Of a stretch of DNA of 36,794 nt, positions 1-35,859 are shown piece by piece. The position numbers and the translations under genes were made by a program. The stretch's first letter is position 1, and each line of letters begins with the position of its first letter. Source of the stretch: a virus (lineage: Duplodnaviria; Heunggongvirae; Uroviricota; Caudoviricetes); the IMG/VR virus record IMGVR_UViG_2713896909_000013; one strand, 5' to 3'. A model generated the notes under the pieces. It was not told the DNA's origin, ran no database searches, and saw nothing but the letters and a program-made list of their open reading frames with translations.

Positions 1-1053
1 TTACGGGGTAATGCCAACCGCTGCCGCCACTTTGTCGCCACTTGGCAGCGTTGCCAGAGGATTGAAACGGAGCGCCGTTTCCAGATGATCCGGTGCCAGA
101 TGTGCGTAACGCATAGTCATTTTTATATCGTGGTGTCCGAGAATTTTTTGTAAGGCCAGAATGTTTCCACCCGACATCATGAAGTGCGCCGCAAACGTAT
201 GGCGCAGAACGTGTGTGAGTTGACCGCGAGGGAGCACGATAGACGTTTTTTCCATCACGGATAAAAATTGAAAATAGCAGTCTGTGAAGAAATTGAACCC
301 ATCAAGCGCCATGATCTCTTCGTAAAGCTCTTTACTGATAGGGATGCTTCTGTTTTTCTTCCCCTTCGTTCTTACAAAGGTAATTCGGTATTTGGTCACC
401 TGTGAACGAGTAAGATTTACGGCTTCTCGCCAGCGTGCGCCTGTGCTTAAGCATATCTTAACTACCAGTGCCAGAATTGGGTCCTGACGTTTGCAATCAG
501 CCAGTAATTCAACAATCTGCTCATGGGTAAGCCATGCCATCTCTTTTTCTGCGATGGTGAATTTTCGCATGTTCTCCAGTGGGTTCGGATACGACCATTC
601 GCCCAGGCGGGATAGTTCGCTAAAAACACTACTTAGATAGCTTTGCTCCAGGTTAATGGTGACCGGGCTTGCTCCTTTCTTCCATTTCTCGCTGAAGTAG
701 ATCTCACCTGTCAGGCGTTTATCTCGATAGTGGGCAAACATTTTAGAGGTTAGATCAGTTGCAAGGGGATTGCCCAGAGCGTCAACCATCAGCAGCAATT
801 TGTCATAGACATGCTGCCCAGCAGTCAGTGATTTACCATGTAGTTTGAACCATAGCTCAACCACGTCTTTCAGTGTTCGACGATCCACTGATTCACCTAG
901 CCAGGGCTTTGCTTCGGTTTCTTCCATCGTGTGACGCTCAAAAGCCAGTGCTTCGCCTTTGGTGGCGAATTGTTTACGCACACGACGCCCACTACGTCCG
1001 GCGGGGTAACATTCGCAAAGCCATTTTCCTGTGGTGAGTTTTCGTACAGCCAT
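1..1053 (-). CDS. int: tyrosine integrase, P2 Int-like
   Basis: C-terminal catalytic region (ARWRE...HVLRHTFAAHFMMSGGNILALQKILGHHDIKMTMRYAHL) typical of tyrosine recombinases; start set at the ATG at 1053 (MAVRKLTTGK) preceded by GGAGGG, not the longer ORF reaching 1131. Confidence 0.9.
   Translation of the reverse strand: MAVRKLTTGKWLCECYPAGRSGRRVRKQFATKGEALAFERHTMEETEAKPWLGESVDRRTLKDVVELWFKLHGKSLTAGQHVYDKLLLMVDALGNPLATDLTSKMFAHYRDKRLTGEIYFSEKWKKGASPVTINLEQSYLSSVFSELSRLGEWSYPNPLENMRKFTIAEKEMAWLTHEQIVELLADCKRQDPILALVVKICLSTGARWREAVNLTRSQVTKYRITFVRTKGKKNRSIPISKELYEEIMALDGFNFFTDCYFQFLSVMEKTSIVLPRGQLTHVLRHTFAAHFMMSGGNILALQKILGHHDIKMTMRYAHLAPDHLETALRFNPLATLPSGDKVAAAVGITP
20..40. repeat. attL: candidate attL core (left copy of the 21-bp direct repeat)
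   Basis: GCTGCCGCCACTTTGTCGCCA; matches 33940..33960 with one mismatch; lies inside the 3' end of int. Confidence 0.55.
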
Positions 1054-1241
1054 AAAAAATGCCCTCCAATAGAGAGCATTTTTACTGTATGTATAACCAG
1101 TGTCAATGTATGAAATCCTGCGACCATACATCTCACTGAAGCCATAATGAAGTAGGCTATTCTTTTTGCTATGTGATCATGTAACTTTTGCGGTTAACCT
1201 GTGGCTCATTTTTATTTTAGGCGCAGATATAAAAGCAAAAG

Positions 1242-1433
1242 TTATCGTGAGTTTTTAGTACAGATTTTTTTGGATTTACTAATAGTTCCATCATTGCAAA
1301 CGAATTTGCCATCAGACGTACAGTGAGAAACACCTCCCTTTTTCCCTGAGCAGGGATAATTTCTAGCATAGGTAGCTAGTGGGTTTAATAACAAAGAACA
1401 TGACAAAACCACAAAAAATACCTTACCAAGCAT
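1242..1433 (-). CDS. small secreted cysteine-rich basic peptide of unknown function (cargo gene between int and cI)
   Basis: 63 aa; hydrophobic N-terminal signal-like segment ([23 protein letters not shown]), then a Lys-rich region with 4 Cys; strong RBS GGGAGA 5 nt before the ATG; AT-rich local composition. Confidence 0.5.
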
Positions 1434-1448
1434 AATTTTCTCCCGGTA

Positions 1449-2018
1449 CTATTTAACATACTTGACTGTTAAACTTATAATTTTACCAATTATTTCAATG
1501 TCTTCTATCTTACATTCAAAGGCTCTGTTTCCACCCTCGACGAAGATTCTTCCACCGGGTAAACGAGTAATGTCACGGATCGTTATTTCGCCATCAATAC
1601 TTATTACCCATTTACCATCACGTATATCATCAAATTCCTTATCACAAATAAATTCAGAATTATTATCTGTGATTACAAAAAGATTCTTGAATGCCGACGG
1701 TAGAAATTCTCTATCGAAAATATAAAAACCGTCTTCACACAAGGCCCCATCAGATAATACATATTTAGCAACTTCCATAGTATTTGTATTACCTGAAGTT
1801 TGCTTTGAACCATGCCCGGTTGTGAGCCAATTAAGCGAGGTGCCTGTTTCAAGGGCGCACTGGATTACCCATTCTGCTGGGAATGAGTCACGCATGTAGC
1901 GTGTGGCGAGTGTACTTTTAGAGATTCCTAAATGATCGCACAACGCCTGTCGAGTCTTGAATCCATAAGCTTCTACCATGCGCTCTATGGCGCCTCGTCC
2001 GCCTTTCTCCAAATTCAT
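1449..2018 (-). CDS. cI: CI-type immunity repressor (186 CI-like)
   Basis: About 190 aa with an N-terminal HTH-like region; sits between int and the divergent apl/cII genes as in phage 186; start set at the ATG at 2018 with RBS GGAGTGA. Confidence 0.8.
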   Translation of the reverse strand: MNLEKGGRGAIERMVEAYGFKTRQALCDHLGISKSTLATRYMRDSFPAEWVIQCALETGTSLNWLTTGHGSKQTSGNTNTMEVAKYVLSDGALCEDGFYIFDREFLPSAFKNLFVITDNNSEFICDKEFDDIRDGKWVISIDGEITIRDITRLPGGRIFVEGGNRAFECKIEDIEIIGKIISLTVKYVK

Positions 2019-3948: not shown

Positions 3949-4802
3949 GCACCATCCTGAAATGGGCGGGAAATAAAACTGCCATAATGTCCGAACTAAA
4001 AAAACATCTTCCTGCTGGCCCGCGACTGGTTGAACCTTTCGCGGGTTCCTGTGCTGTGATGATGGAGACGGATTATCCCAGCTATCTGGTTGCGGATATT
4101 AATCCTGATTTAATCAACCTCTATAAAAAGGTTGCCGCTGATTGTGAATCGTTTATATCTCGCGCCAGAGTTTTATTTGAGATCGCAAACAGGGAGGTGG
4201 CTTATTACAACATAAGGCAGGAGTTTAATTACTCAACTGAAATTACTGATTTCATGAAAGCGGTATATTTCCTGTATCTCAATCGTCACGGTTACCGTGG
4301 TTTATGTCGCTATAACAAGAGCGGGCATTTCAACATTCCCTACGGTAATTATAAAAATCCGTATTTCCCTGAAAAAGAAATTCGCGCATTTGCAGAAAAG
4401 GCCCAGCGAGCAACGTTTATCTGCGCCAGCTTTGATGAAACGCTGGCGATGTTGAAGGCGGGGGATGTGGTGTATTGCGATCCGCCGTATGACGGTACGT
4501 TTTCCGGCTATCACACTGACGGCTTCACTGAAGATGACCAGTATCACCTGGCATCTGTTCTTGAACATCGGTCATCAGAAGGACATCCGGTCATTGTTTC
4601 TAACAGTGACACATCCCTGATCCGTTCGCTGTATCGCAATTTTACTCACCACTACATCAAGGCAAAACGCAGCATCGGTGTGGCAGCTGGCGAGGGTAAA
4701 TCAGCAACAGAAATCATTGCTGTTTCCGGGCCGCGCTGCTGGGTGGGATTTGATTATTCGCGTGGCGTGGATAGTTCTGCCGTGTACGGAGTACGTGCAT
4801 GA
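3945..4802 (+). CDS. dam: DNA adenine methyltransferase (Dam-like, N6-adenine)
   Basis: N-terminal AdoMet-binding motif (KWAGNK) and catalytic DPPY motif ([11 protein letters not shown]); RBS GGAGGTG before the ATG at 3945. Confidence 0.85.
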
Positions 4803-7213
4803 GTCATGCCGATATGAACAACTGCTGCGGCTTTAACGAAGCTGCCGCATCGTTCTCATGGAACAGCTCGAAAAAGGCCATTAACCCTTATCTGGACCCG
4901 GTGGAAGTTGCGCCGGTTTCTACGCTTTCAAACCTGATCACTCTGTACGCTGCCGATAACGAGCAGGAACAGCTGCGCCGTGAGGCGCTGAGTGATCAGG
5001 TCTGGGAGCGTTATTTCTTTAATGAATCCCGTGATCCTGTCCAGCGCGAAATGGAACAGGATAAGCTCATTAGTCGGGCAAAGCTGGCGCATGAGCAGCA
5101 GCGTTTTAATCCGGATATGGTCATTCTGGCGGACGTCAACGCCCAGCCTTCCCATATCAGCAAGCCGCTGATGCAACGTATTGAATACTTCAGCAGCCTG
5201 GGCAGGCCAAAGGCTTATTCCCGCTATTTACGTGAGACGATTAAGCCATGTCTGGAACGACTGGAGCATGTACGCGACAGTCAGCTATCTGCATCTTTTC
5301 GCTTTATGGCAAGCCATGAAGGGCTGGACGGCCTGCTGATCCTGCCTGAAATGAGTCAGGATCAGGTGAAACGCCTGTCCACCCTGGTAGCTGCGCATAT
5401 GAGTATGTGCCTTGATGCCGCTTGTGGCGATTTGTATGCCACCGATGACGTTAAGCCAGAAGAAATCCGCAATACATGGGAAAGGGTGGCAGCGGAAACC
5501 CTGCGTCTGGATGTCATCCCGCCTGCGTTTGAGCAACTCCGTCGGAAAAGAAACCGCCGTAAACCCGTGCCCTATGAACTCATTCCGGGTTCGTTGGCGC
5601 GTATGTTGTGCGCCGACTGGTGGTATCGGAAATTATGGAAGATGCGTTGCGAATGGCGGGAAGAGCAGTTGCGTGCTGTCTGCCTTGTCAGCAAAAAAGC
5701 ATCTCCCTATGTCAGCTATGAAGCCGTGTTGCATAAACGTGAGCAGCGCCGTAAGTCGCTGGAGTTTTTCCGTTCTCATGAACTGGTGAACGAAGACGGC
5801 GACACGCTGGACATGGAGGATGTGGTAAACGCCAGCAGCAGCAACCCTGCGCATCGCCGCAATGAGATGATGGCCTGTGTTAAAGGTCTGGAGCTTATCG
5901 CGGAAATGCGCGGTGACTGCGCCGTTTTCTACACCATCACCTGTCCGTCACGTTTCCATTCCACGCTAAATAACGGCAGGCCCAACCCAACCTGGACAAA
6001 TGCGACGGTAAGACAAAGCAGTGATTATCTGGTCGGCATGTTTGCTGCATTTCGTAAGGCGATGCACAAAGCCGGATTGCGGTGGTATGGCGTGCGGGTG
6101 GCTGAGCCGCATCATGACGGTACAGTTCACTGGCACCTGTTGTGTTTTATGCGCAAAAAAGACCGCCGCACCATCACTGCATTACTGCGTAAGTTTGCCA
6201 TCCGTGAAGACCGCGAGGAGCTGGGCAATAACACTGGGCCGCGCTTTAAGTCTGAGTTGATTAACCCGCGCAAAGGTACGCCAACAAGCTACATCGCGAA
6301 ATACATCAGTAAGAACATTGACGGGCGTGGTCTGGCTGGCGAGATCAGCAAGGAAACGGGGAAATCCCTGCGTGATAATGCTGAATACGTTAATGCCTGG
6401 GCGTCTCTGCATCGTGTTCAGCAATTCCGCTTCTTTGGCATTCCGGGGCGTCAGGCTTACCGTGAACTGCGATTGCTGGCTGGTCAGGCGGCAAGGCAAC
6501 AGGGGGACAAAAAAGCAGGTGCGCCGGTACTGGATAACCCGCGCCTTGATGCCATTCTGGCTGCTGCTGATGCTGGTTGTTTTGCCACCTACATCATGAA
6601 GCAGGGTGGCGTACTGGTTCCCCGCAAATATCACCTCATCAGAACTGCTTATGAAATCAACGAAGAGCCGACCGCCTATGGCGATCACGGCATTCGTATT
6701 TATGGCATCTGGTCACCTATTGCAGAGGGCAAGATCTGCACTCATGCCGTGAAGTGGAAAATGGTTCGTAAGGCCGTTGACGTTCAGGAGGCGGCAGCCG
6801 ACCAGGGCGCTTGCGCCCCTTGGACTCGTGGCAATAACTGTCCCCTTGCTGAAAATTTGTACCAACAAGGGAAAGACAAATCAGCTGATGGGGATACCAG
6901 AACGGATATCACCCGCATGGATGACAAGGAATTGCACGATTACCTGCACAGTATGAACAAAAAAGAGCGCCGGGAACTGGCTGCAAGGTTACGCCTGGTG
7001 AAACCGAAACGGCGTAGAGACTACAAACAGCGAATTACAGATCATCAGCGACAGCAGCTCGTCTATGAACTGAAGTCCAGAGGATTTGATGGCAGCGAGA
7101 AAGAGGTCGATTTACTCCTTCGCGGCGGCAGCATTCCGTCAGGAGCAGGCCTGCGTATTTTCTATCGGAACCAGCGTTTGCAGGAAGATGATAAGTGGCG
7201 GAACCTGTATTAA
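4799..7213 (+). CDS. A: replication initiation endonuclease, P2 gpA-like (rolling circle, HUH)
   Basis: 804-aa protein with an HUH-type motif (DGTVHWHLL, about 6124..6138); position and size match P2 A. Confidence 0.85.
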
Positions 7214-7305
7214 TTACGCGGGTTAACAATTCGTGCTCTTAATAATACCAGGTATATCAGGCTGATGAACGTAAAAAAACGTTTTACATCAGTAAGATTA
7301 TTATA

Positions 7306-7325
7306 TACTGTAAATATAAACAGTG
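7306..7325. promoter_or_regulatory. LexA (SOS) box
   Basis: TACTGTAAATATAAACAGTG matches the CTGT-N8-ACAG LexA consensus with an AT-rich spacer; about 40 bp upstream of the ORF at 7367. Confidence 0.7.
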
Positions 7326-7366
7326 GTTATGCGTACAGTATTGCTTGTGGTGTCATAGGAGGAAAG

Positions 7367-7555
7367 ATGCAGGACTATTTTTTGGAGTCTTTGAAGCTCC
7401 AGCGCATTGATTTTTTTCTTAAGCTTGTAGCGGCTAGTGAGTGTAGTGATGAAGAGAAGGGGCTGGCCCTGCAGTGGGTTTCTGAACTGACAGATGAACT
7501 CATGGCAAAAATCAGAACCCACGAATACAACCGCTCAATGGATGTCATCAGCTGA
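7367..7555 (+). CDS. SOS-controlled small protein, candidate Tum-like antirepressor
   Basis: 62-aa ORF with a perfect AGGAGG RBS directly downstream of the LexA box and upstream of a DinI-like gene; the antirepressor role is inference from the 186 Tum arrangement. Confidence 0.45.
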   Translation: MQDYFLESLKLQRIDFFLKLVAASECSDEEKGLALQWVSELTDELMAKIRTHEYNRSMDVIS

Positions 7556-7565
7556 GGTGACTTTT

Positions 7566-7799
7566 ATGCGCATTGAAATAATGATCGATAAAGAGCAGAA
7601 GATTAGCCAGTCTACCCTGGACGCCCTTGAATCCGAGCTTTACCGCAATCTGCGCCCCCTGTATCCCAAAACGGTAATTCGCATTCGCAAAGGTAGCTCT
7701 AACGGTGTGGAACTGACCGGACTGCAACTGGACGAAGAAAGGAAGCAAGTGATGAAAATTATGCAGAAGGTGTGGGAAGACGACAGCTGGCTGCATTAA
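7566..7799 (+). CDS. dinI: DinI-like protein
   Basis: 77 aa, MRIEIMIDKEQ...ELYRNL...LDEERKQVMKIMQKVWEDDSW resembles the DinI family in length and motif pattern; RBS GAGGTGA. Confidence 0.7.
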   Translation: MRIEIMIDKEQKISQSTLDALESELYRNLRPLYPKTVIRIRKGSSNGVELTGLQLDEERKQVMKIMQKVWEDDSWLH

Positions 7800-7829
7800 G
7801 AAACGTTGCCCCCAAGAGGATTCATTCTG

Positions 7830-8000
7830 ATGGGGGACTATTTTGGGCAACGAGTGAAACGAGGCGTTAGGTGGACGGCCATTTTGATAAGTGATCGTCC
7901 GCTTTTTGTTCTGAGTTCAAGCGATGGATTTAACACACTGGTTGAAGCAGAAGTATCTAAGTTCAATTTATATTATTTGAAGGGCACTGGTCTGATGTAG
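7830..8000 (+). CDS. questionable small ORF at the backbone/cargo boundary
   Basis: 56-aa ORF from an internal ATG with upstream AAGAGGA; overlaps an inverted repeat (GTTGCCCCC...GGGGG...GGGCAAC) that could instead be a terminator after the dinI-like gene. Confidence 0.2.
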   Translation: MGDYFGQRVKRGVRWTAILISDRPLFVLSSSDGFNTLVEAEVSKFNLYYLKGTGLM

Positions 8001-8086
8001 TACGATTTTTGCCGGAGATGGCATGTTCTATATTGATCTCATCCATATAATGATTGGTATTATTAGCTTAGTTTAAAGAGGATTGA

Positions 8087-9664
8087 ATGGATATCAACTA
8101 TGTTGTTTCAAAAATGGGGTTCGTAGATGATCTTATTAATGCAGGTTCATTTGATTCTGCCTATAAAAATGTAAAGGATATTCTTAACGGTATCGATGAG
8201 ATAAATACAATCAAAGAAAATAGAATAATTATATTATCTAATTTGGCCGGAAATCTTATTGATATCGGAAGTTTTAGTAATGTAAAAAATATAGCGGAGG
8301 AAGGCTTAAATATCTTTATAAACAATAAAAATGAATTTCTGACTATAATGAAAGAATCCTTATATTACTATAACTTGGCAAATGGAATGAGCGCAGTTCT
8401 TGATTTTAATCCTAATGACAATGCAGATATTGATAGTTTCATTAAGCTGAATGATGTAAAAAATAATTACTGGAAAGCGTTTAAACTTTCACAAGAAGAT
8501 GGATGGGTGCCCCCTGATTTAATAGTTAATCTAGCTAATGTATTAAAAAAACAATATCGTATATCTGAATCAATGGATTATTATGAACAAGCAATATCTA
8601 TTGATAACTCAATTCCTCAGGCGTGGGTAAACAGATCTGAGGCATTAGAATTGCTTAATGAATTATCTACAACATATACATATAAAATGATTAAAGAAGT
8701 TATTCGAGGTTATGAGTGTGCAATAAAGTCAGGGAAATGTTTTCCTTCATGGAAGGTTGCTCTTCAAAGAAAAATAAAGTACAACGAAAGTATATTGAGT
8801 GAATCATGTGTATATGGGATAGAGGATATAAGTACAGATGAAAGGCTCACGCAGGAGGAGTATGATACTTTATCAAACTACCAGAGGTTTTGTATAGATA
8901 ATAATCTAATGTTGTCTGATCATTCGCTATATTGCAATTGTTATGCGTCATCTAAAGATAATATAACTATTGCTACCACCGAGGAAGGTGTGTTTGGTGA
9001 TTTTATAGTGCCAATGGAAATGGTGTTAAATAGACTTAAAGCTGAGTATTCCTTAGCACGAAAAATGTTTTTTGAATATAAGGTTGATAGTGAGTTTTTT
9101 GATGAGGATTCGGAGGTATGTTATTCTGAATTGTATAATGGAGAAATATTGTATGAAAATGTTGAGAAGTTAAGGGTTGCATTTAGAGCTTGCTTTGGTA
9201 TCTTGGATAAAATAGCAGTTGCTCTGTGTCAATTATTTGATTTAAAACCAGATAGAGGACATATATACTTTCATAACTTCTGGCGGATTAGTGATGAAAA
9301 AAGAAAGCTTAAAATAAACAAAATAAATAATAAAGGATTGCTGGGTTTGTTTAGTATTGCTATGGATTTGAATGATAAAAATGGTGAGCTTGCTTTTTTT
9401 AAAGAATGGAGGAATGATTTAGAACATAAACTGTTAGTTATTCACGAGAAAGACATGTTAGTTGATTTATATAATTCTTATGGATTTTTTGATGAGGTGA
9501 GATTTATTGAGAAAGAAAAGTTTGAGAAACAGCTCTTACAACTCATGAAAATTGTGAGATCAGCCGTTATTCTTTTTGTGTTTACCATACGTATAGAGGG
9601 GAAAAAAAGTATTCCTAAAGATATGTTGACCATTAAAAATACCATCGAGAGAAAAGTATTGTAG
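8087..9664 (+). CDS. cargo protein 1: TPR-like N-terminal region with C-terminal HEPN-like domain (Rx4H motif); candidate abortive-infection RNase
   Basis: 525 aa, very AT-rich relative to the phage backbone; RBS AGAGGA and a TATAAT-like -10 upstream; RNDLEH (Rx4H) at about 9410..9427; TPR-like helical repeat signature in the N-terminal half. Domain calls are from motif reading only. Confidence 0.45.
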   Translation: MDINYVVSKMGFVDDLINAGSFDSAYKNVKDILNGIDEINTIKENRIIILSNLAGNLIDIGSFSNVKNIAEEGLNIFINNKNEFLTIMKESLYYYNLANGMSAVLDFNPNDNADIDSFIKLNDVKNNYWKAFKLSQEDGWVPPDLIVNLANVLKKQYRISESMDYYEQAISIDNSIPQAWVNRSEALELLNELSTTYTYKMIKEVIRGYECAIKSGKCFPSWKVALQRKIKYNESILSESCVYGIEDISTDERLTQEEYDTLSNYQRFCIDNNLMLSDHSLYCNCYASSKDNITIATTEEGVFGDFIVPMEMVLNRLKAEYSLARKMFFEYKVDSEFFDEDSEVCYSELYNGEILYENVEKLRVAFRACFGILDKIAVALCQLFDLKPDRGHIYFHNFWRISDEKRKLKINKINNKGLLGLFSIAMDLNDKNGELAFFKEWRNDLEHKLLVIHEKDMLVDLYNSYGFFDEVRFIEKEKFEKQLLQLMKIVRSAVILFVFTIRIEGKKSIPKDMLTIKNTIERKVL

Positions 9665-9986
9665 TATATTTTCATCGAGCGATGAAACGGTCTGTTTTTC
9701 TTTATAGTTTTGTCATAAAAAAGAGATTTCCTGCTTAAAATTTGGCTATTACAGAGCAACTATGTATGTTCCTCGCTCACAGTAGAGCTTCATCTTTGTA
9801 AGTCTGTATGTTTCGTTTTTCAAGTGGTCATTCAGATACGGACTTTCACTTCTCTTAGACAGTGCATGACTATGCTGCATGAAATCGCATGATCGTTTAA
9901 GGATCGTTTTTGCTAAGGCTCGCCAGAACTAGCGGGCTTTTACGTAGAACATGCAGGTGCATGAAAACCACTACATAAAGCGGGCA

Positions 9987-10005
9987 GGCGTGGCGGGGAT
10001 ACGAT
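9987..10005. other. cos: cos cohesive-end site (P2/186-type 19-nt sequence)
   Basis: GGCGTGGCGGGGATACGAT followed by TGCGCGC; closely matches my recollection of the P2 and 186 cohesive ends (GGCGAGGCGGGGAAAGCAC... / GGCGTGGCGGGGAAAGCAT) including the downstream TGCGCGC; sits in a GC-richer patch between the two AT-rich cargo genes. Confidence 0.6.
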
Positions 10006-10065
10006 TGCGCGCAAGCATAGATTCTGTAATATGTATGGCACATAGCAAATGACAAGGTGATTATT

Positions 10066-11805
10066 ATGCATGCGATCTTGAAACAATACGTCGAAGATCT
10101 TTCTAACCAATTTGCGATAGAAGAAGATGAACCGAAACTCTTCGAGTATTTTTGTAATTATGTTATTGCTTCTAAAAAGTATTTAGGACGATTTAGCCCT
10201 ATCGATATCACTACTCAAGAGGATGATGCCTCATTAGACGGAATTATCTTTCTTATTGATGGTGAATTAATAACTACTGTTGATGATGCTGAGGCGATAT
10301 TTAAAACCCATAAAACATCATTGCCAGTGGAGTTAATACTTACTCAGATTAAATCTGGTGAGGCTTTTGTTAAATCAGATATTGCAAATTTCAAGATTGG
10401 CTTGGATGATTTTTTAAGTCTTAAACCAAAATTACCAAATGGTATCTATAACACTCAAGCTATTGAAATATTGAAAGTAATATTTGCAAATGTAAAAAAA
10501 ATTAAAAACAAAAAACCATCGCTTACAGTTCATTATTGCACTAGTGGTACTTATGTTGAAGAGAGAGAAATTAAAGCTACATTTGATATAATTAAAAAAT
10601 CATGCTTCGATACTGACTTTTTTGATTCTGTTGACGTGAGACCTCTCGGGCGTAAAGAACTAATGGATATGTGGATATCCATAACCGAAAAAAATGAGGC
10701 TGAGTTACAGTTGATTGATTACATAGGTATCGAGGCTATGCCAGGTATCCCTCAATCATATATTGCAATTGTAAAAGCAAAGCATTTTATTGAGAAGCTT
10801 GCAAAAGATAGTGATGGAAAAATAAAAGAGTCAATTTTTGAAGAAAATATACGTGCGTTCTTAGGAAGTGATAATAATGTTAATAATAAAATATCCTCAA
10901 CTTTAGAAGATAAAAAAATAAAAGCAAAACAATTTCCAGTGTTGAATAATGGAGTGACTATAATTACTCCAGAGTTATCTATACAACCAAACACAAAAGT
11001 TATAAATCTTACAAATTATCAAATTATTAATGGTTGTCAAACAACTAATACACTCTTCCATCATTACGATAATTTAAATGATGATGTTGAGATTGTTGTC
11101 AAATTTATAGAGTCTCAAGATGCTGATGTTGCAAGTAGCATAATTGAAGCAACAAATAGTCAATCAGCAATTGAAGGAGCAGCGTTTTTTGCATTGCGTG
11201 AAAAAGCTAAAATGGTGCAGAAATATTTCGATCTACAGAGGAAAGACCCAAAACTGGAAAGTATATATTTTGAGCGGCGTGAAAATGAATATCGGCCATA
11301 TGATATACAATCTACACGTATATATGATATTAAAGAACTGGCTCGTTGCTTCATATCTGTATTTAAGCGGAACCCGCACAATGCTGCTAGATATGTTAAA
11401 AAAGTACTTAGCGAAAGCGATAATATAATATTTGGTGAGGCCGATAATGAGTGCGCATATTATACTGCGGCGTATATATGTTATAAGTATAATACTATGA
11501 TTAACGGGCGAAGAGAAAATGCACAAAAGTATAATAAATATAGATGGCATATTGCAATGTTATATCCTTGGGTCGTAAATAAAAAGGTTGAGAAAGTTGA
11601 ATTAAATTCAAAGAAAATGAGTGCCTATTGTGAGCGTATTCTTAAAACATTTTATAATGACAACTATATTAAGCATTTTTCAAAATGCCATGAGATAATT
11701 GATGCTCTTGCTTTAGATAATGAGAATGGTGTTACAGATGATCAACTAAAACGTGCACGATATACTACTAGTTTAATTGAAAAAGCTACTGAGATTTTGA
11801 AATAA
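10066..11805 (+). CDS. cargo protein 2: AIPR-like (abortive infection phage resistance family-like) protein with a possible PD-(D/E)xK-like N-terminus
   Basis: About 579 aa from the ATG at 10066 (RBS AAGGTGA); very AT-rich; NGCQTT motif at about 11029..11046, which I associate with AIPR-type proteins; N-terminal D...QxK pattern (FLIDGE...LTQIK) compatible with a restriction-endonuclease fold. Confidence 0.45.
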   Translation: MHAILKQYVEDLSNQFAIEEDEPKLFEYFCNYVIASKKYLGRFSPIDITTQEDDASLDGIIFLIDGELITTVDDAEAIFKTHKTSLPVELILTQIKSGEAFVKSDIANFKIGLDDFLSLKPKLPNGIYNTQAIEILKVIFANVKKIKNKKPSLTVHYCTSGTYVEEREIKATFDIIKKSCFDTDFFDSVDVRPLGRKELMDMWISITEKNEAELQLIDYIGIEAMPGIPQSYIAIVKAKHFIEKLAKDSDGKIKESIFEENIRAFLGSDNNVNNKISSTLEDKKIKAKQFPVLNNGVTIITPELSIQPNTKVINLTNYQIINGCQTTNTLFHHYDNLNDDVEIVVKFIESQDADVASSIIEATNSQSAIEGAAFFALREKAKMVQKYFDLQRKDPKLESIYFERRENEYRPYDIQSTRIYDIKELARCFISVFKRNPHNAARYVKKVLSESDNIIFGEADNECAYYTAAYICYKYNTMINGRRENAQKYNKYRWHIAMLYPWVVNKKVEKVELNSKKMSAYCERILKTFYNDNYIKHFSKCHEIIDALALDNENGVTDDQLKRARYTTSLIEKATEILK

Positions 11806-11811
11806 ATGGAT

Positions 11812-11842
11812 GCAGCCCAAGGAAGGGCTGCTAATTTTTATT
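11812..11842. terminator. bidirectional rho-independent terminator between cargo gene 2 and portal gene Q
   Basis: GCAGCCC-AAGGAA-GGGCTGC hairpin followed by TAATTTTTATT; lies between the convergent genes ending at 11805 and 11838. Confidence 0.6.
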
Positions 11843-12869
11843 CGAAATGATACGAAAAAAAATTGATAATGTCCTCACCTAACCAATCATTAATCTCTGA
11901 TATTCTTTTTTGTAAAGGTAATAGCTCATTCCTTACAAAAACCTTACTAGCCTTCTCCACATCTCCAAATCCCCCAACATTATTAGGCATTATTCCCATC
12001 ATCTGCGGCGGCACACGATGCGCCGCCATCATGTCATCTCGGCTGACGTTCTTAATATTCAAAAACTCATCCTTCGCCGCGACTTCTGACAACGGGATGA
12101 TCTGAAGCCCGTCCTTTTTGCCGTTAGGCGAGTACATAAACAGGTTGCGGAAATTGCCTGGTCCTTTAGCATTTTTCATCGCATTGCGGAGGTTGTTCAC
12201 GTCCTCCTGATTCTGCGCGGCGTCGGTCATGTACATGATGAAGCCTGCATGGCTGCCGTTGATGTAATACTTACGGCGGAACAGCGTTGCGGACTCGTTG
12301 AGCAGGGCGGACGGAATGGCAGAAAGATAACCGGGCAGGCCGTAGATCTCCTGATTAATATCCGGTTCCATCAGATGAAAAATGCTGCCTTTCGTGAACT
12401 GATACGGCTGGGTTGTCATACCGTATTGCACAAACCAGTAGGTATCCAGGTCTAATCCGCGTCGGGTGTATTTTGCCAGCGCAGGTTCAAGGGCGATCAC
12501 TTCACCGAAGCGGTTCGTGCGTTTCTCCAGATAGGCGTTGCCAAATACCAGATAGTCCTGCACAAAACGCGAAAAAGCCTGCTGGCTGAGCAGAGGATGA
12601 GGGATATAGGTACTGGTCAGAATGTTGCACTTTACTGCAATCGGGGAACTGTGATGCACGGCGGCGCGGAAGGTGCGAGCCAGACCGTCGAAACTCACTG
12701 GCGGCTCATACCAGCGATCTGTCTGTACGCATTGCACATAGTCCAGCAGTTCGCGGCGGTCAAGTACAGGAACGGGATCACCGAAGCTGAATGCTTCGGC
12801 TGAAGTCTGGCTTTTATGCTGGATCTGATTCGTCGCCGTAGTGCGGTTTTTCTTACTCTTTCCCATCAA
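11838..12869 (-). CDS. Q: portal protein, P2 gpQ-like
   Basis: 343 aa, matching P2 Q in size and position next to the large terminase gene. Confidence 0.85.
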   Translation of the reverse strand: MMGKSKKNRTTATNQIQHKSQTSAEAFSFGDPVPVLDRRELLDYVQCVQTDRWYEPPVSFDGLARTFRAAVHHSSPIAVKCNILTSTYIPHPLLSQQAFSRFVQDYLVFGNAYLEKRTNRFGEVIALEPALAKYTRRGLDLDTYWFVQYGMTTQPYQFTKGSIFHLMEPDINQEIYGLPGYLSAIPSALLNESATLFRRKYYINGSHAGFIMYMTDAAQNQEDVNNLRNAMKNAKGPGNFRNLFMYSPNGKKDGLQIIPLSEVAAKDEFLNIKNVSRDDMMAAHRVPPQMMGIMPNNVGGFGDVEKASKVFVRNELLPLQKRISEINDWLGEDIINFFSYHFE

Positions 12870-32532: not shown

Positions 32533-33629
32533 ATTTCAGCTCTGAACTGCTTAACAAAGGCAACAAAACTCCCGCATTCAGCATCAGTATTGAGGGCAGG
32601 GATATCACCACTGTGCTGGATAACCGCCTGATGAGTTTGACGCTGACGGATAACCGGGGCTTTGAAGCGGACCAGCTTGATCTGGAGCTGGATGACGCTG
32701 ACGGAAAAATCGTGCTGCCGCGCCGTGGTGCGGTTATTACGCTGGCGCTGGGCTGGAAGGGGCAGCCGCTTTTCCCGAAAGGGGCATTCACAGTGGACGA
32801 GATTGAACACACTGGCGCACCGGACCGCCTGACTATCCGGGCGCGAAGTGCTGATTTTCGGGAAACGCTGAATACCCGCCGTGAAAAATCGTGGCATAAG
32901 ACCACCGTCGGGGAAGTGGTGAAGGAAATAGCCGCGCGGCACAAGCTGAAGATGGCACTGGGTAAAGACCTGTCGGATAAGCCCGTGGAGCATATAGACC
33001 AGACTAATGAGAGTGACGGCAGTTTTCTGATGCGGCTGGCGCGACAGTACGGTGCCATCGCGTCGGTGAAAAATGGCAATCTGTTATTCATCCGGCAGGG
33101 GCAGGGCAAAAGCGCCACTGGTAAACCTCTGCCAGTGATCACTATCACACGCAAGGACGGCGACAGTCACCGATTTACCCTGGCAGATCGCGGAGCCTAC
33201 ACGGGCGTAATTGCCAGCTGGTTGCATACCCGCGAACCTGCGAAGAAAGAAAGCACCACGGTGAAGCGTAAGCGCAGAACTAAGAAGCAGAAGAAAGAGC
33301 CAGAAGCGAAGCAGGGTGATTACCTGGTGGGTACGGATAAAAACGTGCTGGTACTTAATCGCACTTATGCCAACCGGAGCAACGCCGAACGAGCGGCGAA
33401 AATGCAGTGGGAACGCCTGCAACGCGGCGTTGCGTCATTTTCGCTACAACTGGCAGAAGGGCGGGCAGATCTCTACACGGAAATGCCTGTGAAGGTCAGT
33501 GGTTTTAAACAGCCGATAGATGATGCGGAATGGACCATTACGACTCTGACACATACCGTCAGCCCGGATAACGGTTTTACAACCAGTATTGAACTCGAAG
33601 TAAGGATTGATGATTTCGAAATGGAATGA
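32529..33629 (+). CDS. D: late control/tail protein, P2 gpD-like
   Basis: 366 aa, GTG start overlapping the U stop; position matches P2 D. Confidence 0.85.
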   Translation: MNFSSELLNKGNKTPAFSISIEGRDITTVLDNRLMSLTLTDNRGFEADQLDLELDDADGKIVLPRRGAVITLALGWKGQPLFPKGAFTVDEIEHTGAPDRLTIRARSADFRETLNTRREKSWHKTTVGEVVKEIAARHKLKMALGKDLSDKPVEHIDQTNESDGSFLMRLARQYGAIASVKNGNLLFIRQGQGKSATGKPLPVITITRKDGDSHRFTLADRGAYTGVIASWLHTREPAKKESTTVKRKRRTKKQKKEPEAKQGDYLVGTDKNVLVLNRTYANRSNAERAAKMQWERLQRGVASFSLQLAEGRADLYTEMPVKVSGFKQPIDDAEWTITTLTHTVSPDNGFTTSIELEVRIDDFEME

Positions 33630-33719
33630 TTCTTCGCAATGGAGAACTTTTAAGTTTGCAAAATGGAATAATGCGGTATCATTATTGTGAATTTAGCAAA
33701 AATGGGGAGAACTCGAAAA

Positions 33720-33938
33720 ATGATGATTTGCCCACTGTGTGGAAGTGCCGCCCATACTCGCAGCAGTTTTCAGGTATCTTCATTGACCAAAGAGCGTTAC
33801 AACCAGTGCCAGAACATTAACTGCAGCCATACTTTTGTTACCCATGAAACTTTTGTTCGTTCGATTGCAACGCCAAAAGAGTCAAATCCGGTTCAGCCAC
33901 ATCCAATGAAATCAGGACAGGTGGCGCTCTCTCTTTGA
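33720..33938 (+). CDS. ogr: Ogr late-gene transcriptional activator (zinc finger)
   Basis: 72 aa from the ATG at 33720 (RBS GGAGA); C-x2-C-x22-C-x4-C motif (CPLCG...CQNINC); same length as P2 Ogr and last gene before att. Confidence 0.9.
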   Translation: MMICPLCGSAAHTRSSFQVSSLTKERYNQCQNINCSHTFVTHETFVRSIATPKESNPVQPHPMKSGQVALSL

Positions 33939-33939
33939 C

Positions 33940-33960
33940 GCTGCCGCCATTTTGTCGCCA
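33940..33960. repeat. attR: candidate attR core (right copy of the 21-bp direct repeat)
   Basis: GCTGCCGCCATTTTGTCGCCA, 20/21 identical to 20..40; begins 2 bp after the ogr stop codon. Confidence 0.55.
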
Positions 33961-34018
33961 TCGTTAAAAAACAGTGTTTCTAACATCATGATTTTAAACA
34001 GCTTAAATTTCAGGCAAC

Positions 34019-34173: not shown

Positions 34174-35859
34174 TTATCCGAGTCCTGGCCACACCATTAC
34201 AATGATTGTCCCCGCCAGCGTCAGTAGCACGTTAGCTATTGCATAGGTACCTGCATAGCCCAGCGCCGGGATATTACTGCGCGCAGTATCGCTGATAATC
34301 TCCATTGCCGGAGCGCAAGTACGTGCTCCCATCATTGCGCCGAATAACAGCGCGCGGTTCATACGCAGTACGTAAGCACCGAACAGGAAGCAGATAACCA
34401 CTGGCACCAGACTGACAATCAATCCGGCAATTAGCATTTGACCGCCAATTGCACCAAGGCCGTTATTGATGCCGCTACCGGCGCTTAAACCAACGCCTGC
34501 CATAAACACCATCAAACCGAACTCTTTCACCATGCTTAAGGCACCCTGCGGAATATAGCCGAAGGTAGGATGGTTGGCGCGCATAAAGCCCAGCATAATA
34601 CCGGCAAATAACAATCCGGCAGCATTACCCATGCCAAAGCTAAATGTACTGAACTGGAAAGTGATCATCCCAATCATCAGACCAATGACAAAGAATGCGC
34701 AGAATGCCAGCAAATCGGTAACCTGGCTGTGAATTGAGATAAAGCCAATGCGATCGGCGATGGTTTTCACGCGACGGGCATCACCACTGACTTGCAACAC
34801 GTCACCTTTATTAAGTACCACGTTGTCATCGATTGGCATCTCTATCTGGCTGCGGATGACGCGGTTAAGGAAGCAACCGTGATCGGTCAATTTCAATTGC
34901 GCCAGACGTTTACCAACGGCGTTATGGTTTTTAACTACTACCTCTTCAGTGACGATACGCATATCGAGAAGGTCACGATCAAAAACTTCTTTACCGTTAC
35001 GGAAGCTGGGATCGAGTCGGGCGTGGGCGTCAGGGTAACCGACCAACGCAATTTCATCACCCATTTGCAGCACGGCATCGCCATCCGGGTTCGCCAGAAT
35101 CCCATTACGGCGGATACGCTCGATATAGCAACCCGTTTGCCGATAGATGCCCAGTTCTCGCAGATTTTTGCCGTCGGTCCATGCAACCAGTTCCGGGCCG
35201 ACGCGGTAGGCGCGGATGACAGGTAAATAGACTTTACGGCTGGCGTCGGTGTCCAGACCTCGTTCACGGGCGATCTGTTGAGCACTGGTCTGCAAGTCCT
35301 GATGCTGCAACTTCGGTAAATAACGCGCGCCGACAATCAGACTGACCAGACCAATTAAATAGGTTAACGCATACCCGAGGCTAAGATTATCCAGTGCCAG
35401 AGAGAGCTGCCTGCTTTCCATACCAGAATGGCGTAACGTATCGCCGGCACCAACCAGAACTGGTGTTGAAGTCATGGAGCCAGCTAACATCCCGGCTGTC
35501 AGGCCGATGTCCCAGCCAAACAGCTTACCCAGCCCTAAGGCGATCAGCAGCGCACTGCCGACCATTACCAGGGCTAACATTAGATAATTTTTCCCATCGC
35601 GAAAAAAAATGGAAAAAAAGTTGGGTCCGGCTTCGACCCCGACGCAGAAAATAAACAGCATAAAACCAAGATTCAGTGCGTCGGTGTTAATGCTGAAATG
35701 TTGTTGGCCTAATAACAGCGATACGACCAAAACGCCAATGGAATTACCCAGTTGGATTGAGCCAAGTCGTAATTTCCCGAGACACAGCCCAAGCGCGAGG
35801 ACCACAAATAATAACAGAATGTAATTCCCATTTAACAATTCGGCGACGTTTATATTCAC
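34174..35859 (-). CDS. ybjL: putative transporter YbjL (AspT/YidE/YbjL family, two TrkA-C domains)
   Basis: 561 aa; the sequence matches E. coli YbjL as I recall it ([34 protein letters not shown]...); GTG start. Confidence 0.9.

Follow-up and report, generated by a model that had tools for sequence, protein, structure and literature searches.

An AbiU-family protein with a predicted restriction-endonuclease-like domain in the cos-proximal hotspot of a P2-like prophage

The closest described system to the locus analysed here is AbiU (AbiU1 or AbiUi) of Lactococcus lactis (pND001), a single-protein abortive-infection system that is catalogued as PDLC02357 in PADLOC and as AbiU in DefenseFinder. 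In Lactococcus, AbiUi alone gives modest resistance, plaquing falling 10- to 100-fold, and AbiUii reduces this resistance (PMC13064643). The same 2026 review states that the AlphaFold model of AbiUi resembles FokI and, in what it relays of Dai et al. 2001, that AbiUi delays phage transcription. The nature of the protein has been described in different ways: a 2026 study in Nature Communications assigned AbiU-1 to the PD-(D/E)xK superfamily of defence proteins (PMC13099982), AbiU1/AIPR has been described as containing a ParB-like nuclease domain (PMC3632139), and Makarova et al. 2012 reported that AIPR proteins carry an N-terminal HEPN domain.

In P2-like phages, the region between gpA and gpQ is an established defence hotspot (Rousset et al. 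2022, PMC9122126), and AbiU is present in the hotspots of P2 and P4 alike (2026 NAR, PMC13586616). Rousset et al. 2022, in their supplementary hotspot table, already give an arrangement ‘hypothetical + HEPN_LA2681 + AIPR + DinI’ with WP_059241720, which is the protein studied here. The same authors also cloned pFR77, a single-gene AIPR system of a P4 satellite whose relationship to the present protein is distant; it is absent from the seven systems that they reported as protective, eight phages having been tried (PMC9122126). This is negative evidence of a weak kind, as pFR77 belongs to another AIPR subfamily. Our literature search found no experiments on the present allele or on any enterobacterial AbiU. 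The gene, its hotspot, its family and its nuclease-like fold are all already known, PGAP and PADLOC already call the AbiU allele between cos and Q, and published hotspot tables include it; the existing annotation is correct, and we claim no discovery.

The abiU gene and its family

The window (the whole stretch of 36,794 nucleotides that was analysed) contains an open reading frame of 579 codons, whose ATG is also the RefSeq start (Table 1). This confirms the original prediction of a gene of about 579 amino acids with its own ribosome-binding site. A mechanical ORF list starts instead at an in-frame GTG at position 10057, which falls within the Shine-Dalgarno sequence. The gene had also been described as very AT-rich, which agrees with its composition: the GC content is 31.6% (GC3 22.6%) in a prophage of ~55% GC, compared with 53%, 49% and 57% in the flanking phage genes A, Q and P, respectively. 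The motifs quoted at that stage are all found in the translation (FLIDGE at residues 62–67, LTQIK at 92–96 and NGCQTT at 322–327). Because 579 codons remain open in such AT-rich DNA and database searching returns hundreds of full-length homologues, the frame is far above chance expectation. Scanning the plus strand from cos to the ATG gave no convincing sigma-70 promoter, the top candidate reaching 7/12. A G+C-rich hairpin with a stem of 7 bp, 6 of them G-C, followed by TAATTTTTAT, lies where abiU and Q converge and is probably a terminator.

Table 1 Features of the abiU region, with positions in the window.
Feature	Position	Strand	Remark
Replication gene A	4799–7213		
HEPN_LA2681/TPR gene, upstream of cos	8087–9664		Pfam HEPN_LA2681, E = 1.8e-38
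Conserved cos (packaging) block, left border of cargo slot	9861–10014		91–93% identical to P2-like phages
cos core-like 19-mer GGCGTGGCGGGGATACGAT	9987–10005	+	Read directly; 5 mismatches to P2/P4 core GGCGAGGCGGGGAAAGCAC
Shine-Dalgarno AAGGTG	10054–10059	+	6 nt 5' of ATG; read directly
AbiU-type AIPR family CDS, 579 aa	10066–11805	+	RefSeq WP_059241720.1
Predicted PD-(D/E)xK (FokI/Mrr-like) nuclease-fold domain, residues 1–205	10066–10680	+	
Candidate catalytic residue E27	10144–10146		
Candidate catalytic residue D58	10237–10239		
Candidate catalytic residue Q94	10345–10347		
Candidate catalytic residue K96	10351–10353		
AIPR core, residues 255–420	10828–11325	+	Contains NGCQTT (11029–11046)
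All-helical C-terminal region, residues 421–579	11326–11802	+	Predicted secondary structure
G+C-rich hairpin followed by T-run, probable terminator	11812–11831		Consensus scan only
Portal gene Q, convergent with abiU	11838–12869	-	3' end faces abiU

The assignment to the AIPR family, for which an HMM search had been named as the check, was borne out: the Pfam AIPR profile (PF10592) matches residues 258–520 (143.3 bits, cut-off 25; E = 1.7e-41). The PADLOC AbiU model PDLC02357 covers nearly the whole protein, aligning residues 2–575 with model positions 3–535 of 537 (E = 3.1e-107, 358 bits). A search of plasmids with tblastn recovered a 589-aa protein of Lactococcus cremoris pC42, with which the window protein shares 26% identity over residues 4–471 (BLASTP, E = 3e-25). 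The AbiU model gives this pC42 protein 590 bits, and the next gene encodes a 341-aa protein of Pfam family HEPN_AbiU2, which is the classical AbiU1–AbiU2 arrangement. Since the match to the AbiU model is full-length and the protein is homologous to a lactococcal AbiU1-type protein, we assign it, on sequence grounds, as a divergent, full-length member of the AbiU family.

The likeness to lactococcal AbiU extends to the length class (579 versus 589 aa), a three-part architecture and carriage on a mobile element. The E...D...QxK and NG.QT motifs are kept in common with the lactococcal plasmid protein, though the second reads NGCQT here and NGLQT there. Besides the low identity, the two differ in setting: the window protein resides in a P2-like prophage of a Gram-negative host instead of a lactococcal plasmid, and no AbiU2-type HEPN gene follows it; the HEPN_LA2681 gene found upstream, beyond cos, is unrelated. 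The AIPR core is also held in common with MzaE of the MZA (MzaABCDE) system, the NCBIfam model NF041935 matching residues 254–376. Membership of MzaE was nevertheless rejected, as the match reaches 34 bits where 1050 are required and there are no MzaA–D genes nearby, the neighbours being phage genes and the HEPN/TPR gene.

Domain architecture and conserved residues

The original prediction had proposed a nuclease-like N-terminus with the aspartate of FLIDGE in its active site, and of these the fold stands whereas the aspartate does not. Structure prediction, which had been suggested as a check on the first 150 residues, was run on residues 1–211 and gave a pLDDT of 91.7 and a pTM of 0.89; the whole protein, modelled by AlphaFold2 from a 117-sequence alignment, gave 86.3 and 0.73. 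The predicted N-terminal domain has a restriction-endonuclease-like alpha/beta core fold, and its topology does not correspond to the all-helical HEPN domain, which was rejected as an N-terminal assignment on this basis. In the model, E27 lies on a helix (residues 22–38), D58 opens a strand (57–64) and Q94xK96 ends another (88–96), a placement that fits the site expected of the D...QxK type of PD-(D/E)xK nuclease and marks the four residues as candidates for catalysis.

Conservation follows the same residues. Exhaustive HMMER searching of 1.84 billion cluster representatives with residues 1–255 retrieved 533 relatives, and across 93 full-length relatives with 21–55% identity E27 is kept in 98%, D58 in 99%, Q94 in 99% and K96 in 90%. 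These are essentially the only four polar residues kept in the N-terminal domain, and the sequence around them has drifted to 26% identity. D65, the aspartate within FLIDGE, was rejected as the catalytic residue: it is replaced by Asn in 60 of the 93 relatives, and the conserved aspartate is D58, in SLDGI. The signature is thus D...QxK, in which Gln occupies the middle acidic position of the canonical PD-(D/E)xK motif. Active enzymes of the Mrr/MspJI type use this Gln variant.

The corresponding profile check came back empty. Among 32 N-terminal domain sequences there was no match to a Pfam nuclease family at E ≤ 1, and a profile built from the 32 found nothing at E ≤ 10 among PDB chains. Foldseek gave no PDB match at E ≤ 0.001, and a full-length profile searched against the PDB returned noise only. 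Compared with the domains of Mrr/FokI type (FokI, N.BspD6I, AF1548, MspJI, AspBHI, LlaBIII and the N-terminal nuclease of Avs4), the window domain shows 8–17% identity and no profile-level match, with QxK in place of their (D/E)xK, and the partner domains of those enzymes are unrelated to its AIPR core.

The AIPR core is the most conserved part of the protein, with a mean identity to distant relatives of 35%, and the predicted helical C-terminus is the least conserved, at 21%. Within the core, N261, R263, N273, N295, G296, N322, G323, Q325 and T326 are invariant, and conservation is almost complete at T363-N364-x-Q366 and E403-R404-R405. Modelling suggests that the core possibly has structural affinities to the ParB/sulfiredoxin-like fold. 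Among the 25 most frequent of the 35 Pfam families matched in 80 relatives, the window protein included, only AIPR was found consistently, the others occurring in 1–3 members each, and neither DUF262 nor ParBc was found at E ≤ 0.1. Relative to GmrSD, BrxU and SspE, which are ParB/sulfiredoxin-fold NTPase-nucleases with DUF262, and to DndB, the domain order of the window protein is reversed. The nuclease of GmrSD/BrxU/SspE-type proteins is moreover of the HNH type (DUF1524), as opposed to PD-(D/E)xK here. The N-terminal and AIPR domains were both present in all 80 of the full-length relatives scanned. What had been called a prophage-carried nuclease–AIPR fusion is the constant two-domain architecture of AbiU-type AIPR proteins and is not peculiar to this prophage.

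The slot between cos and the portal gene

The gene order in this part of the window is A, a small ORF, DinI, the HEPN_LA2681/TPR gene, cos, AbiU, Q and P. The cos block is 91–93% identical to those of Fels-2 and of Escherichia, Klebsiella and Yersinia P2-like phages, and with gene Q on its other side the position of abiU between cos and the portal gene is as had been predicted. The P2 cos 19-mer itself, allowing up to 3 mismatches, has no match in the window. The 19-mer at 9987–10005, located through the conserved block and by eye, is cos-like and is read here as a diverged variant; the P2/P4 core used for comparison was read from the P4 inserts that Rousset et al. 2022 had cloned. The earlier statement that this slot has essentially no coding sequence in P2 is right for P2 itself, and needs amending for other E. 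coli P2-like prophages, in which defence-type cargo is routine. There the slot is empty in some cases (total span about 785 bp) and in others holds TIR, PIN, RES, DprA, SieB, TIGR02391 or hypothetical genes. Judged by this position, abiU is cargo of the cos-proximal gpA–gpQ hotspot of a P2-like prophage.

Over the regions compared (7200–12000 and 9861–12300), the window and a P2-like prophage of E. coli ST130 (NZ_CP043478) share 100% identity; in that prophage the gene is annotated as ‘AIPR family protein’ (WP_059241720.1). The gene is rare: of 5426 complete E. coli genomes, 9 carry abiU, always on the chromosome and always with at least 99.5% identity, and ~1280 have the flanking cos/portal sequences. 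In Salmonella phage Fels-2 this slot is occupied by STM2723.1 (YP_001718749.1), likewise flanked by the conserved cos block and gene Q; the AbiU model recognises this protein over its full length (375 bits), and its phage record says hypothetical only. Because it is only 32% identical to the window protein, the Fels-2 slot was filled independently by a different AbiU lineage. A 65%-identical homologue lies beside the integrase in the hotspot of P4-like satellites (Salmonella, Citrobacter), and one of 75% identity lies between tail genes S and V in a Serratia P2-like prophage. More distant relatives occur on plasmids of many phyla.

Proposed function and alternatives

We consider it likely that the gene encodes a stand-alone AbiU-type anti-phage protein, carried as cargo by a P2-like prophage, which protects the lysogen from other phages by means of a triggered nuclease. 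The machinery would consist of the Mrr/FokI-like PD-(D/E)xK domain with its E27-D58-Q94xK96 site, the AIPR core with its NNG.T, NGCQT, TN.Q and ERR motifs, and the variable helical C-terminus. In the uninfected lysogen the protein would be kept inactive. On infection, the AIPR core and C-terminus would sense a phage cue, which may be a nucleic acid or a nucleotide, and sensing would release the nuclease, which at an early stage of infection would cut the nucleic acid of the phage and possibly that of the host. Such early cutting would match the delayed phage transcription described for lactococcal AbiU.

One might instead regard abiU as one half of a two-gene system whose other half is the upstream HEPN_LA2681/TPR gene. 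Sensing would then fall to the AIPR protein, and the HEPN protein would be an RNase that acts as effector or modulator. The upstream gene does have a HEPN_LA2681 domain, the lactococcal AbiU1 homologue has a HEPN_AbiU2 gene after it, and ‘HEPN_LA2681 + AIPR’ is one arrangement in the table of Rousset et al. 2022. However, about 400 bp, including the cos site, separate the two genes, and the neighbour to the left of cos varies: in five genomes a KAP-family P-loop NTPase gene replaces the HEPN gene beside an abiU allele whose DNA is 99.5–100% identical, and in chicken isolates two unrelated hypothetical genes stand in its place. Conversely, among the matches listed, the HEPN_LA2681 gene occurs in other E. 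coli genomes without abiU. Obligate pairing was rejected on these grounds, and the genomic distribution indicates that abiU assorts independently of its left-of-cos neighbour. The homologues in P4-like satellites, Serratia and Fels-2 likewise lack a HEPN partner, and in Lactococcus AbiUi suffices alone and AbiUii lowers resistance (PMC13064643). The two-gene system is accordingly improbable, and the parallel to lactococcal AbiU1 with its HEPN protein AbiU2 is probably coincidence.

The remaining alternatives accept a stand-alone gene and differ over what its product does. Defence might proceed without cutting, the AIPR/ParB-like core binding phage DNA or the transcription apparatus and the nuclease-fold domain serving only for DNA binding or oligomerisation. 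Delayed phage transcription, the sole published phenotype in the review's account of Dai et al. 2001 (PMC13064643), would suit this reading, as would the Gln where the motif should have its second acidic residue and the example of DndB, which is reported to share the AbiU1/AIPR-type region and is not a nuclease but a potential negative regulator of restriction (PMC3632139). Against it, E27, D58, Q94 and K96 are near-invariant among relatives that are only 21–55% identical, and the surrounding scaffold residues are not conserved, which is the pattern that selection for catalysis predicts; we regard a non-cutting role as rather unlikely, if the least unlikely of the three. Still less probable, and in our estimate very remote, is a role in the service of the prophage with no host defence, for instance against P4-type satellites that share cos, or in packaging or cos processing. 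The gene does lie ~60 bp from the cos core, and the hotspots of P2 and P4 both flank cos (PMC9122126). Yet P4-like satellites themselves carry close homologues, and other homologues occupy a tail-gene slot far from cos, plasmids of many phyla and non-phage chromosomal settings. Since 9 genomes carry the gene and ~1280 have the cos/portal sequences, abiU cannot be required for packaging. The pattern of conservation and the genomic contexts together make all three alternatives less likely than the triggered nuclease proposed above.

As to how that nuclease is held in check, a more tentative suggestion, which we would not favour at present, is that AbiU is nucleotide-gated, the AIPR core, with its possible ParB/sulfiredoxin-like fold, binding or hydrolysing an NTP or clamping phage DNA and so licensing the N-terminal domain. 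If this were true, AbiU would be a reversed-order, restriction-endonuclease-armed analogue of GmrSD, BrxU and SspE. Lying ~60 bp from cos, abiU would moreover be at one extreme end of the packaged linear genome, and this position could favour a privileged window of expression on entry.

AbiU/AIPR proteins are widespread, and the allele described here offers a convenient, compact, single-gene E. coli model in which phage sensing and the target of cleavage may be studied. Its nuclease domain is modelled with confidence, and E27, D58, Q94 and K96, as clear candidates for catalysis, provide points of entry.

HEPN gene left of cos and its pairing with AbiU

The first of the AT-rich cargo genes has a GC content of 30.7% and encodes a protein with an LA2681-type HEPN domain at its C-terminus (Pfam E=1.8e-38); the TPR matches around residues 145-175 are weak and sub-threshold. 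No PADLOC system match was returned for this protein. Among the matches listed, copies 99-100% identical to the gene occur in other P2-like prophages of E. coli that lack AbiU. The gene is a candidate for a defence gene whose HEPN RNase acts alone. Between its stop codon and the AbiU ATG, a stretch that includes cos (9665-10065), no convincing plus-strand sigma-70 promoter was identified, the best candidate having 7/12 matches.

An AIPR gene also adjoins a HEPN gene on the L. cremoris plasmid pC42. The Lactococcus pair comprises AbiU1 and HEPN_AbiU2, and that of the window HEPN_LA2681 and AbiU. The HEPN families, gene order and linkage all differ, and the two E. coli genes also occur apart. 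Convergence or coincidence therefore seems a better account of the likeness than a conserved operon.

Coordinates of the features discussed (L-numbered loci are from other genomes, each in its own coordinates)
Locus	Position	Strand	Feature	Context
Window	8087-9664	+	HEPN_LA2681 gene, 525 aa	Left of cos
Window	8087-11805		HEPN-AIPR gene pair
Window	1001-1500		GC dip (0.36)	Near prophage end
Window	33501-34000		GC dip (0.42)	Near prophage end
Window	34174-35859	-	ybjL-like ORF	Host
L002	3910-5802		KAP-family P-loop NTPase, 630 aa (Pfam E=4e-22)	E. coli isolateD; left-of-cos slot
L004	6297-7727		476-aa protein	P4-like satellite, Salmonella/Citrobacter; directly upstream of 65%-identical AbiU homologue
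L007	8001-9809		AbiU homologue, 75% identical	Serratia marcescens P2-like prophage; between tail genes S and V
L010	2959-6011		AIPR-HEPN gene pair	L. cremoris pC42
L011	6801-8998		Prophage remnant with AbiU	E. coli ECCWS199

Exchange of cargo around cos

In five genomes, E. coli isolateD among them, an AbiU allele identical to that of the window is accompanied by a KAP-family P-loop NTPase. This NTPase fills the left-of-cos slot beside an unchanged AbiU, which shows that the hotspot's two halves are exchanged independently of each other by recombination at cos or close to it. Separately, GC content dips near both prophage ends, the right-hand dip lying by the ogr-like end and adjoining the host ybjL-like ORF; these regions may represent other cargo or attachment-site regions.

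AbiU in a decaying prophage and in other hotspots

The AbiU-carrying prophage of the chicken isolate E. coli ECCWS199 is a remnant: it has lost the majority of its structural genes, and its annotation marks the terminase, tail tube, gpE and gpD-like genes as truncated pseudogenes. The portal gene and AbiU itself are still intact, consistent with the cargo being kept while the prophage decays.

In three P4-like contexts, the 476-aa protein is encoded directly upstream of the 65%-identical AbiU homologue. It gave no Pfam or PADLOC matches, and may be either an uncharacterised partner or a separate cargo gene. The Serratia marcescens homologue occupies the P2 orf30 position rather than cos, and the same defence gene is therefore one that moves among different hotspots of P2-like phages.
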